Assembly: GCA_031414955.1 (NCBI GenBank)
Contig: JANOQV010000204.1
Span: forward strand, 1 to 15,555
Direction: 5' to 3'
Source: Pedosphaera sp.
GTDB lineage: Bacteria > Verrucomicrobiota > Verrucomicrobiia > Limisphaerales > SIBH01
DNA length: 15,555 nucleotides
Part shown: in pieces, positions 187 to 12,817 of the stretch
How the letters are laid out: every line of letters begins with the position of its first letter
How positions within the stretch are numbered: position 1 is the stretch's first letter
Notes under the pieces: model-generated
The model's input: the letters and a program-made list of their open reading frames with translations, nothing else
Databases searched by the model: none
What the model was told of the DNA's origin: nothing
Program-made: the position numbers and the translations under genes

Positions 187-1101
187 TCACGCCGCCTGCG
201 CCGCCGCGACGGTGATTTCGAACACCGCGCTCGCCTGGCCCTCGCCGCCCGCGTTGCGCGGGATGGCCTGGAAGCGATGCAGCCCCACCAACTGGTTCTG
301 CAACGTGAGGCTCTTCAGCGGCGAATCGGCAAACAGCACCACGAACACCGGCGAGTCGGGCGGCTGGTGCAGATACGTGAAGCGCGTCGCGTGCGGCGCG
401 TGGCAATCGAAATGGATCACCCTGCCGGCCACGATGATGTTGGAAATCACGGCCTGCCCCACCGGCGGCGGGGGCGTGTAAGTCGTCGGCACCGTCGAGC
501 GGATCGTGTCGCCCGCCGCCGTGCCGGCCTTGAACTTGTTCGTCGCCGCGGCGTACCACGCCACGCACGCCTTGTCGCAGGTCAGGGCCGTCACCATCAG
601 CTTCGAGGCGGCCGTGCGCCAGTCCTCGAAGGCATTCGCGTGCGCCGCCTTCTCCGCCAGCGAGTTGGCCAGCAACGAGCCGAAGTTGGAGAGTTCCACC
701 TCCGCGTCGAACACCCAGGCGCCATCCGCCTTGGCCCAGAGCGCGCGCGCCGCCTCGCCCTGGTTGTAAAGGCCGTCGCGCCCCTGCGCGTCCGTGCGCA
801 GCGCGCGGAAGCGCGACAGCACCGCCGGCTGCGCGCGAAAGTAATAGACCCCCTCGCGCTTCACGTCGCGCGACACGCGCTGGATGTTTCCCAGCGACAG
901 GTCCCACGTCGCCGCGGCCGCACGCCAGTCGGCCCGCTTGTTGATCTCCTGGATGCGCAGTTGCTCCAGCCCGGTGTGCTCCGGGCCCCATTGGGCGGCG
1001 GGCTTGCCGGACCAGACCCACGGCGGCGTGCCCGTGCTCAGTCCCAGTTGCGTGGTGGAAGTCGCCAGCAGGCGACTCATGGTGAAGGAGATGCTTTTCA
1101 T
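187..1101 (-). CDS. Hypothetical protein, probably helical N-region plus C-terminal fibronectin-III/Ig-like domain
   Basis: 304-aa ORF with an AT-rich upstream region. A Pro/Thr linker (VPTTYTPPPP) precedes a beta-rich tail ending HRFQAIPRNAGGEGQAS, which resembles the FN3 Y.F.V.A.N..G.G..S pattern. Alternative start at 1080. Confidence 0.65.
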   Translation of the reverse strand: MKSISFTMSRLLATSTTQLGLSTGTPPWVWSGKPAAQWGPEHTGLEQLRIQEINKRADWRAAAATWDLSLGNIQRVSRDVKREGVYYFRAQPAVLSRFRALRTDAQGRDGLYNQGEAARALWAKADGAWVFDAEVELSNFGSLLANSLAEKAAHANAFEDWRTAASKLMVTALTCDKACVAWYAAATNKFKAGTAAGDTIRSTVPTTYTPPPPVGQAVISNIIVAGRVIHFDCHAPHATRFTYLHQPPDSPVFVVLFADSPLKSLTLQNQLVGLHRFQAIPRNAGGEGQASAVFEITVAAAQAA

Positions 1102-1247
1102 AACTGTGTTCCGTCTGTCTTTCTATTTTGGTTGTTTTCACGAACGCGCCATTCGGTGCGTCACTGGTATTCCTCATATCATGTGCCGTGCCAAACCCCA
1201 CCGACCGCAAAAGAAAGTGAGCGCCTCCCCTCCTCCTGCGGGCTTCT

Positions 1248-1270
1248 CCCTCTCCCCGTCCGACGGGGAG
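1248..1270. repeat. Palindromic REP-like hairpin CCCTCTCCCCGTC-C-GACGGGGAG, cut on one arm by the IS110 end
   Basis: CTCCCCGTC (1252-1260) and GACGGGGAG (1262-1270) are perfect reverse complements. The AGGG needed to extend the palindrome is replaced by IS sequence. Confidence 0.7.
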
Positions 1271-1297
1271 CAACGGTGTTGTTGGGCAAGCATTTTT

Positions 1298-2254
1298 TCA
1301 GGCGGTTTTGAGCGCCGGTTTCGGTTTCGGTTTGAGGGCCTGATTCATTTGCACCAGCAGTTTGCGCATCACCGCCGTCAGCGCCACTTTGGCCGGTTTG
1401 CCGGCCGCTCGCAATTTGGCGTAGAACTTCCCCAGGGTGCTCTCTTTCATCCGCGCCAGGGCCACCGCCGACATGTAGAGGGCCCGCCGCACCGCCGCCC
1501 GCCCGCCGCCGATGTGCCGCTGGCCTTCCCAGGGGCCGCTCTGGCGCGTCCACGGGGCCAGGCCGGCCAGTGCCGCCGCTTCGCCCCGGTTGAGCTGGCC
1601 CAGTTCAGGCATCTGGCTCAAGACGCTCACGGCGGTGAGCCGGCCCACGCCGTCCAACGCCTCGAGCTGGGCCACCGGTTCCTGCCACTGCGGGGCCCGC
1701 GCCAGCGCCGCCGCCATCTCCCTCTCGACGGCCTCCATCTGCTGGTCCAGGTGCGCTTCCAGTTTGGCCAGGCGCTTCTTGACGAAGGCCAGGGTGGCGT
1801 GTTCGGCGTGGTTGCGCAGGCCGTTGCGTTGTTCCACCAGCTGGCCGCGCCACTGCACCAGCCCGCGCAGTTCGGCCAGCGCCGTGTCGGGCAGGGGCGT
1901 GGCCGCCGGCCGCAGGGCCGCGCCGTAGGCGGTGAGCACCCGGGTGTCGAGGGGGTCGTTCTTGGCCCGCTGGCCCTGGGCCAGGGCGAAGTGCCGCACC
2001 AGCGCGGGGTTGAGCACGCTCACCGGGATCGCCGCCGCCTGGAGCGCGGCGACCACGGCCCGTTCGTAGCCGCCGGTGGCTTCGCAGACGACGTGCGCGC
2101 CGGGCACGGCCCGCAGGAGTTTGACCAACTGGCGGTGGCCGGCGGCGGTGTTGGGCAGGGTGTAACCTCGGCCTTGGAGGTCGAGTTGGAGGGTGGCCTT
2201 GGCAATATCCAGGCCGGTGTGGACGACGGAGGTTTTTTCAGTCAGTGTGTTCAT
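1298..2254 (-). CDS. IS110-family transposase/recombinase (DEDD RuvC-like domain plus Tnp domain)
   Basis: 318 aa with motifs GLDIAK (D), VVCEATGGYE (E), AKNDPLD (D,D), LDGVG, AGLAPWTRQSG (catalytic Ser) and ALTAVMRKLL. AGGAG Shine-Dalgarno upstream. Frame intact. Confidence 0.95.
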   Translation of the reverse strand: MNTLTEKTSVVHTGLDIAKATLQLDLQGRGYTLPNTAAGHRQLVKLLRAVPGAHVVCEATGGYERAVVAALQAAAIPVSVLNPALVRHFALAQGQRAKNDPLDTRVLTAYGAALRPAATPLPDTALAELRGLVQWRGQLVEQRNGLRNHAEHATLAFVKKRLAKLEAHLDQQMEAVEREMAAALARAPQWQEPVAQLEALDGVGRLTAVSVLSQMPELGQLNRGEAAALAGLAPWTRQSGPWEGQRHIGGGRAAVRRALYMSAVALARMKESTLGKFYAKLRAAGKPAKVALTAVMRKLLVQMNQALKPKPKPALKTA

Positions 2255-2481
2255 GCTGTTCGGACTCCTACTTGCACATGCGAGCGCGGCCCCGAAGGGA
2301 CGGCTCTATCAACGGTTCGAGTGACGGACAGAAGGCGAGAGCGGCTCTGGCTCCCCGACGAACGCGCCGAAGCGGTTCCAGAGGGCAACGAGCGCGCCCG
2401 CGCCGCCGCCCTCCCCCCTGCAGGGGGGAGGGCGGCCCCATCTTCCTGTTTGGCTTGCGCCAAAAAAGGAAGATGGAAAGA
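2255..2481 (-). ncRNA. Putative bridge RNA of the IS110 element (ends approximate)
   Basis: Two 5' hairpins (2438-2476 with a GCAA loop; 2405-2436) followed by two internal loops, each capped by a UUCG hairpin. Guide segments: TTGCCCTCT (2388-2380), CGGGGAG (2357-2351), ACCGTTGAT (2316-2308), GTGCAAG (2277-2271). Confidence 0.75.
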
Positions 2482-2487
2482 GACATA

Positions 2488-2703
2488 CCAGGGTTGCGAG
2501 TCCGCGAGCTACCCTGGGTTGGCTCGCATGGAATTCCTCTTCAACCCTGAAGGGGTTGCAGCACGCTCGGGATCTTCCCACGGCCCCGCACCGTGTGACC
2601 AGTGCTTCAACCCCTTCGGGGTTGGTAAATTTTTTGCGGGCGTTCCCAGGGTAGCTCGCACCTCGCAACCCTTGGGCAGAGTGCTTCAATCCTTTCACGA
2701 TTG
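2488..2703. repeat. Cluster of nested inverted REP-like palindromes (REPIN/BIME-like)
   Basis: 2488-2518 (CCAGGGTTGCGAG..CGAGCTACCCTGGG) is a near reverse complement of 2645-2676. 2542-2563 and 2603-2624 are inverted copies (20/22 identical). A degenerate third copy of the inner unit lies at 2682-2703. Confidence 0.8.
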
Positions 2704-2767
2704 AAAAACGGCTCGTCGAGAGGCGGGCAACGACATGGCGTTTGCGCCGGCTCAACGGTAAGACCAT

Positions 2768-3084
2768 TCAAGGCAATCTCATCGCCCGGTAGTAACGGTG
2801 CGTGCTGTTCGTCGCCGTGGGATCGATGATGTTCGCCGTTGCGCCGTTCCAGGAAATCGTGCCCGTCAACGCCGTCCAACCGGCCGCGCCCAGGTCATCC
2901 TTGAACTCGGCGCGATAGCTTCGAGCGGGATTGCCCGTCCAGAATAGCAGCTTGCCGCCGCCGCCCGCCGGCGAAACGGTCAGCACCCGAAAGGTGGAAG
3001 CGGCAGCGCGAGCAGGCCGAGCAAGGCCAGCGCGGCGAGGACGGCGGCCAGTTCGAGGCGGGTGAAGGCGGCGCGGGAGTTCAT
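2768..3084 (-). pseudogene. Chimeric remnant: prepilin-type N-terminus (3084-2980) joined out of frame to the C-terminal domain of a secreted protein (about 3005-2768)
   Basis: One frame gives MNSRAAFTRLELAAVLAALALLGLLALPLPPFGC* (AFT.LEL prepilin motif, stop after 34 aa). Another gives AASTFRVL...LFWTGNPARSYRAEFKDDLGAAGWTAL...DPTATNSTHRYYRAMRLP*, resembling the terminal 'R[FY]YR' domain of verrucomicrobial extracellular proteins. Confidence 0.6.
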
Positions 3085-3248
3085 GCAAGTGAGTGTTGTG
3101 GATAAGAGGCCCGACCGGGGGAATTTATTCCCGCCAGAACGCCTGAAAGCATGTGTGGTTCGAGGCATGACGTGTTCGGAGTCTGGTGGCGAAAGCACGG
3201 CCGGCGTCGGGGAATGGCAACGCGGTTCTCGAAGGCCGAGGCACCTCG

Positions 3249-3407
3249 GGCGCATTCGTCCACCGTTGGCGAATGACCCGGGGCCAGGTGGGCGGCCTCG
3301 CGCTGCGAGGCCAGGTCGAACGGCCCAGGCCAAGCCCTCGCCTCGCAGCGCGAGGCTTGCCACCTCCGCCCTGGTTCCGGCTTTCACCAACGGTGGACGG
3401 ATGCACC
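3249..3407. mobile_element. 159-bp non-autonomous MITE/REPIN-like element
   Basis: 25-bp terminal inverted repeats (3249-3273 and 3383-3407, 3 mismatches). Flanking 10-bp direct repeats AGGCACCTCG (3239-3248) and ATGCACCTCG (3408-3417). Internal perfect 17-bp inverted pair at 3295-3311 and 3340-3356. Confidence 0.6.
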
Positions 3408-6715: not shown

Positions 6716-6790
6716 TGGAGCCAGTTGTCGGATTTGAACCGACGACCGACGGTTTACAAAACCGTTGCTCTACCACTGAGCTAAACTGGC
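6716..6790 (-). tRNA. tRNA-Thr (TGT)
   Basis: GCCAGTT/AACTGGC acceptor stem, D arm GCTC..GAGC, anticodon arm ACGGT-TT-TGT-AA-ACCGT, T arm GTCGG-TTCAAAT-CCGAC, encoded CCA. 75 nt. Confidence 0.97.
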
Positions 6791-12709: not shown

Positions 12710-12817
12710 GAGTCCAAGGTCCAAAGTCCAAGGTCCAAGGTCAGCGTCAGTCGTGGGCGACGCGCCTGGGCAACTCGACGCGGCGACCTTGGACCTTGGA
12801 CCTTGGACTTTGGACTC
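12710..12817. repeat. Two inverted arrays of 7-nt repeats (A[G/A]GTCCA) forming a long hairpin between nadK and the LacI gene
   Basis: 12710-12742 and 12785-12817 are 33-bp inverted repeats with 2 mismatches, around a 42-bp spacer. Confidence 0.9.

Follow-up and report, generated by a model that had tools for sequence, protein, structure and literature searches.

The closest described relatives of the element reported here are IS621 (PMC11208160, PMC11208158; structure 8wt6) and ISCro4 / IS622 (10.1101/2025.05.14.653916), which is equally distant from it and has the same architecture. In the published accounts of IS621 this architecture comprises a DEDD plus serine recombinase, a long left end, a two-loop bridge RNA and a CT core. 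The right donor guide of IS621 pairs discontinuously with CTTGTAT, using two bases, two flipped-out bases, a non-canonical G and four bases (PMC11208158). Bridge RNAs are predicted in 85.7% of IS110 elements (PMC11208160), and a screen has covered 72 IS110 orthologues (10.1101/2025.05.14.653916). Of ISCro4 / IS622 and the element reported here, only the former has been shown to be active in human cells. In the IS1111 group, the same recombinase family is accompanied by an RNA on a long right end (PMC11208160). ISPpu9 and ISPpu10 of Pseudomonas putida are also IS110 elements and insert into repeated intergenic or REP sequences; by their descriptions, other hosts and other targets set them apart. 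Half-match events and rearranged natural loci have been described as well (10.64898/2026.08.31.748434, 10.64898/2026.08.14.744561).

We analysed an IS110-group element on the minus strand of a 15,555-nucleotide stretch of Pedosphaera sp. DNA (the window), in which an earlier note, made from the sequence alone, had recognized a bridge RNA. The recombinase class, long left end, two-loop RNA and CT core are shared with IS621, as are 9-nt left guides, a bulged right donor guide of the form AT-nn-G-CAAG, the right donor TGTAT, a candidate junction promoter and a repeat target. Unlike IS621 as described, the element has a distant protein, the left donor ACCGTTG, a different target and two 5' hairpins; pairing by its right target guide extends over 7 nt instead of 4, the first core position in its left donor guide is A, and the left flank of this copy is swapped. 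That swapped flank is the only unexpected feature of an otherwise ordinary element. Literature searches combining IS110, Verrucomicrobi and bridge RNA found nothing, and we did not find the clade named in print; a search for IS110, Verrucomicrobi and palindrom gave only irrelevant matches. The exact donor and left guide are absent from the searchable Durrant 2024 supplements, which cover part of the files and one gapped alignment, and the member may sit in other lists.

Element boundaries and recombinase

The element (Table 1) is almost certainly an IS110-group, IS621-like bridge element, judging from its sequence. Its recombinase combines a DEDD RuvC-like domain with a Tnp domain carrying the catalytic serine and matches PF01548 (E 2.7e-18) and PF02371 (E 2e-13). 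Only two solved sequences match it, those of IS621 (8wt6; E 5.8e-29, 105 bits) and ISCro4 / IS622 (PDB 9t56; E 4e-28), in alignments spanning its length. All five catalytic residues are in place, with D16, E58, D100, D103 and S239 aligning with IS621 D11, E60, D102, D105 and S241. The dinucleotide CT stands at both junctions (2491-2490 and 1270-1269). The left end is long, at 237 nt, and the right end short, at 29 nt, in contrast to the RNA-bearing long right end of the IS1111 group. These domains and residues, together with the homologues described below, support what the earlier note had proposed for the IS110 bridge-RNA class, the loop and guide positions and the CT core, and every loop motif and guide that it named lies on the minus strand where it had placed them. 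Both the recombinase and the RNA of this copy look intact by sequence.

Table 1. Coordinates of the element, its predicted bridge RNA and the flanking repeats in the window
Feature	Position	Strand	Evidence
IS110-group insertion sequence, core to core, 1,223 bp	1269-2491	-	Ends set by homologues
318-aa bridge recombinase ORF	1298-2254	-	Pfam domains, IS621 structure match
Predicted bridge RNA with presumptive 5' end: two 5' hairpins, target loop, donor loop	2255-2481	-	Fold, pair covariation
Two 5' stem-loops, upstream of target loop	2405-2477	-	Fold z -9.0
Target loop	GCTC 2393-2390; left guide 2388-2380; inner hairpin 2378-2360; right guide 2357-2351; GAGC 2347-2344	-	
Donor loop	ACTC 2322-2319; ACCGTTG 2316-2310; GTGCAAG 2277-2271; GAGT 2267-2264	-	
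Left target guide TTGCCCTCT	2380-2388	-	Covaries with left flanks in homologues
Right target guide CGGGGAG	2351-2357	-	5/5 plus core match to 1270-1264
Left donor guide ACCGTTG(AT)	2308-2316	-	Identical to 1277-1271
Right donor guide, discontinuous AT-gt-G-CAAG, specifies CT-TG(T/C)AT	2271-2279	-	IS621 pairing scheme
Right junction: left donor ACCGTTG, core CT (1270-1269), right target CCCCG	1264-1277	-	
REP-A right half; other arm is a second, inverted target at 1245-1258 (5/7 left, 5/5 right)	1243-1270	.	
Candidate -35 box TTGCCC; in a joined circle a candidate -10 (2487-2482) would lie 17 nt away	1284-1289	-	
Anomalous left junction: flank CGCAACC, core CT (2491-2490), GGTAT replacing TGTAT	2485-2498	-	
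REP-B cluster, truncated at the left end of the element; a sister guide lineage targets it	2488-2710	.	

The 90% protein cluster of the recombinase has two members with three residue differences, and the best plasmid matches are less than 44% identical. Within its own genome (G000), a relative split over two contig ends (C115:1-373 and C134:1-1010) has 66% protein identity and nearly the same guides, and a partial relative (C80:12314-12869) has different guides. Records titled Klebsiella pneumoniae (L008, L019) hold close relatives (82-86%) with REP-A-like flanks; their label may be wrong.

We also surveyed the remainder of the window. At the gathering threshold Rfam placed no family over the element, its sole match in the window being a tRNA gene at 6719-6790 (minus strand). 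A search of the window's minus strand for a larger element, with cargo and a more distant left end, found no guide-matching flank joined to a donor half. We considered CTTGCAT at 3089 as the true left end and rejected it, given its non-matching flank and chance-level occurrence. An ORF at 187-1101 (minus strand, 304 aa) has no Pfam match and has paralogous relatives at 25-29% in 3 of 13 family genomes. More clusters of palindromic repeats lie at 3249-3407 and at 12710-12817, the latter with a tandem heptamer-like inverted repeat.

Bridge RNA and guide covariation

Short guide matches are weak evidence within the window alone, where ACCGTTG occurs 6 times against 1.9 expected and the target 11-mer, allowing up to one mismatch, once against 0.55. 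Since these counts are near chance, the guides were tested in homologues, and the significance of the matches comes from that comparison. Loci were drawn from the element's own genome, a protein scan of genome contigs (15 loci), 60 relatives and a donor-loop pattern scan of metagenomes (at least 120 stretches). At least 151 carried the donor-loop pattern; 13 of these were removed because their donor loop was missing its second half and 7 for shortness, which left 131 rows, duplicates of the same locus included. The named relatives are mostly Verrucomicrobiota assemblies, in keeping with a host of that phylum. Guides were read from alignment columns, blind to the flanks; one-base slips in a few of them work against the test.

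Across the homologues the target guides change in step with the insertion flanks, as expected of a bridge RNA and as the earlier note had suggested checking. With the 1269-2491 copy left out, left guides matched their flanks at 4.47 of 7 positions against 2.45 after shuffling (74 distinct pairs), and right guides at 4.28 of 5 against 1.81 (43 distinct pairs). None of 20,000 shuffles reached the observed match on either side, a result to be read as something other than a p-value because the homologues are related and shuffling overstates their independence. The outcome holds with one pair per guide (54 left and 36 right guides). Agreement is best beside the core (78-86%) and worst at outer positions 1-3 (28-51%). 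Eight of the 74 left pairs match at 2 of 7 positions or fewer, some of them through guide misalignment.

The predicted RNA has two internal loops, each bounded by a stem. In 32 hand-picked RNAs of the 109 distinct ones, the named structure was paired in 93.7% of cells, compared with 25-45% for slid controls. In the same sample 13 of 17 target-loop pairs show two-sided changes, a number reached in 0 of 500 shuffles; the donor-loop stems show no variation, in part because they were included in the search pattern. Folding of 2255-2481, also proposed earlier as a check, gave z -5.5, most of it from the 5' hairpins (z -9.0), and the isolated loops fold weakly (z -1.9 and -0.4). The homologue L009 lacks both 5' hairpins (about 100 nt) and sits in a perfectly matching target, which suggests that the hairpins are dispensable, were lost later or are supplied in trans.

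The base after the right target guide is C in 85 of 88 distinct guide sets, and in this element it could form a handshake pair with G at donor position 7. For the donor-loop handshake base, agreement with target position 7 is seen in 26 of the 37 sets that have T and 9 of the 45 that have C; the base is mismatched in the 1269-2491 copy.

A sigma-70 scan of the linear region found no promoter. Of 66 distinct right ends from homologues, 35 have TTG at the -35 offset, a conservation in line, by analogy, with the junction promoter of IS621, and we treat the box as a promoter candidate only. RNA run X12 yielded contigs identical over 2232-2434 and over parts of the ORF, and run X20 yielded a contig matching a piece of the ORF only. 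We did not accept these contigs as proof of bridge RNA expression, since they carry neither strand, ends nor level and may include DNA carried over. Nor do we take missing coverage of the flanks in the RNA runs as evidence. The joint of a circle appears in none of the contigs listed from the read runs.

Comparison of the donor ends revised one pairing. The earlier note had aligned GTGCAAG contiguously with CTGGTAT, the left end of this copy. The homologues point instead to the bulged arrangement AT-nn-G-CAAG, which is found in 53 of 91 distinct guide sets, with a longer bulge in 19 more. Left ends read CT-TGTAT in 81 of 88 distinct cases and CT-GGTAT only in the 1269-2491 copy; the search accepted ends with up to one mismatch to CTTGTAT, which inflates the figure of 81, but a G elsewhere would have been found. 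Read in this layout, the right donor guide would specify CT-TGTAT, not CT-GGTAT. When the element's donor guides are set against its own ends, the left one matches at 7 of 7 positions, ACCGTTG being identical to 1277-1271 as previously noted, and the right one is mismatched at the first post-core base, a comparison to be read knowing that the homologues were selected on their donor loop. The donor end of this copy is probably impaired, and G at the first post-core base would also remove the TG ahead of the candidate -10. Seven loci (L018, L066, L073, L082, L089, L112 and L124) combine a REP-B right guide with a right donor guide ending in TAAG and lack any left end resembling CTTGTAT, which suggests that the donor of this subgroup has changed.

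Target repeats and the left junction

We labelled two families of host palindromes REP-A and REP-B. The REP-A 11-mer CCCTCTCCCCG, found in the window at 1248-1258, has 61 copies in the genome where 1.7 would be expected, and nearly all of the 40 listed lie within the REP-A palindrome. The full 14-mer predicted by the guides has 0 copies in the genome. The split paralogue (C115/C134), with its nearly identical guides, also has a REP-A right flank. In read run X5, from a study other than that of X1, a contig is identical over 1263-1394 and then enters a different REP-A arm, so the same element end has landed in REP-A more than once. Together with the match of the right target guide, which is the exact reverse complement of 1270-1264 (right flank 5/5), these comparisons show that the predicted guides select the host REP-A palindrome, with CCCT-CT-CCCCG as the best-read part, and that the right junction of this copy is, by its sequence, a REP-A insertion. 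The earlier proposals of an exact right-guide match and of a palindromic-repeat target thus hold.

Two other proposals fared less well. The element had been credited with a specificity of its own, which is overstated: Durrant 2024 supplementary file 5 (PMC11208160) contains CCCTCTCCCC 49 times, as target entries in the passages shown, so a CCCT-CT-CCCC repeat among published natural IS110 targets is not a new specificity. An intact target at 1248-1258 on the other arm of the hairpin is indeed present; it follows merely from REP-A being a palindrome, as does the whole second target at 1245-1258. Elsewhere in the genome (G000), contig C281 stops, at its reverse-strand end, exactly after a REP-A left half and CT, like an unassembled insertion junction.

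The left junction is different. CGCAACC agrees with the element's own left target guide at 1 of 7 positions, against 5 of 5 for the right flank, so that the flanks fit the guides on the right and fail to on the left, a mismatch the earlier note missed. We read this as a later rearrangement, which lowers the case for an intact insertion and leaves family membership unaffected. CGCAACC is the left half of REP-B, whose 12-mer occurs 23 times in the element's own genome against 0.65 expected. REP-B arms continue as CTGGGCT in 25 of 36 cases, and only the arm at 2485-2498 continues as CTGGTAT. Of 64 REP-A right halves, 54 keep CCCT and 2 follow an IS110 end. Each repeat thus stands at this locus as one half that ends in register at the CT core, and the unexpected G is the next base of REP-B. 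On this reading the left junction is secondary, probably through a deletion, and the G at 2489 probably comes from the REP-B repeat.

REP-B is itself the target of a sister IS110 lineage with the guides TTCAACCCT/AGCCCAG and about 47-55% protein identity where full length. The flank CGCAACC is exact in four sister loci with guide TTCAACCCT (L105, L107, L151 and L160), and GGGCT follows in 14 of 14 AGCCCAG-guide loci with a right junction. The left ends of the two guide lineages are about 85% alike over 60 nt. By a crude rule, 10 of 58 distinct loci with both junctions are discordant, and among these 58 only the 1269-2491 copy has, by eye, a flank cognate to another guide of the set.

We looked for further copies of this junction in several collections. 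No contig among those listed from the read runs bridges it, so a single assembly supports it. We found no second copy of the exact left end that could display TGTAT, the exact left-end 21-mer has 0 matches in viral contigs, and 400 genomes of the order hold no near-identical left end, the best being 85-86% over long matches. Flanking-gene synteny in 13 family genomes did not reveal the state before a deletion. A gene remnant lies nearby at 2764-3088 (minus strand), parts of which match C23:9012-9083 and C23:12796-13037 of the own genome at 79% each; about 3.7 kb seem deleted there at an 8-nt overlap near 3000, about 500 bp from the left junction. We rejected a tie between that deletion and the guide of the C80 paralogue, as the overlap is a few bases off the corresponding CT.

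Possible histories of the left junction

By analogy with IS621, a circle would form whose joined ends supply both the donor ACCGTTG-CT-TGTAT and the bridge RNA promoter, the two RNA loops would pair with donor and target, and a recombinase tetramer would exchange strands at the CT core. At this locus, insertion into REP-A would have come first. A local rearrangement, most simply a deletion, would then have joined the left end to the left half of REP-B, removing the left half of REP-A and leaving G at the first post-core base; a plain deletion would explain that G without any further change, and the apparent deletion near 3000 speaks for it as well. Weighing against the account are the poor agreement at outer guide positions, the absence of the 14-mer from the genome and a left junction known from one assembly. 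We give this whole account, an IS621-like element inserted into REP-A with a secondary left junction, a probability of about 0.7.

A special case of it would name the agent: a REP-B-targeting sister sharing the donor loop may have joined the left junction to a nearby REP-B site by bridge recombination on a right-donor half-match. The CT of REP-B lies in exact register with the core of the element, its CGCAACC and GGGCT halves are those seen at the sister loci, and half-match recombination is reported for IS621 (10.64898/2026.08.31.748434). We nevertheless consider it unlikely that a sister RNA acted here, because cleavage between core position 9 and position 10 (PMC11208158) predicts CT-TGTAT rather than CT-GGTAT, the case is one in 58 loci with both junctions, and a search of the 95.9%-complete assembly, whose coverage of multi-copy elements has gaps, turned up no REP-B-guided sister, no junction of one and no convincing reciprocal junction. 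Less probable still is recombination of an element in REP-B with a relative in REP-A through the first 60 bases, where the two are similar, with loss of the DNA between them and a separate origin for the G. The likeness of the lineages' left ends would permit this, and both repeats would then have been cut at the core without unusual chemistry, yet an extra point change would be needed exactly where REP-B has G, the first 30-60 nt of the left end show no clear grouping with REP-B-guided elements, and the sister is again absent from the assembly.

The version closest to the earlier note, an intact insertion whose natural variant donor CT-GGTAT entered a pre-existing hybrid site read by the right guide alone, dispenses with a second event; the right flank is perfect, and the poorly matching left pairs among the homologues indicate that natural flanks tolerate mismatches. 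We hold it improbable all the same: the guide keeps an A that pairs with T at the position concerned, G appears there in 0 other of the 88 left ends, and the empty site would have been a hybrid of two repeat families, while no such hybrid was recognized in the genome. An assembly or library chimera at the left junction is doubtful to much the same degree. This is a metagenome assembly of 313 contigs with 5.8% contamination, the REP-B 32-33-mer recurs exactly on other contigs, and the X1 contig stops at 2490. That stop, however, is expected from the repeat branch alone, and the two sides offer no long overlap on which an assembler could join them. REP-A insertion followed by a local rearrangement is the preferred account.

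Taken further, the sister-RNA case would describe a Verrucomicrobia-associated IS110 clade in which one donor loop is combined with many target guides and element ends are open to the bridge RNA of a sister. Here a REP-B sister would have swapped the left flank and deleted host DNA, with an exchange 1-2 nt past the usual cut. We regard such cross-talk as a tentative and rather unlikely proposal.

With this element the bridge recombinases gain a further compact member that is only distantly related to IS621 and whose 7-nt right guide can be read. Its homologues provide at least 54 naturally occurring left target guides combined with a single donor loop, which is unsurprising and useful for orthologue screens. 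The element also carries a practical warning, in that a donor read from the ends of a single copy would be wrong here. If a sister RNA did make the left junction, the bridge RNAs of related elements would rearrange each other's loci in nature.
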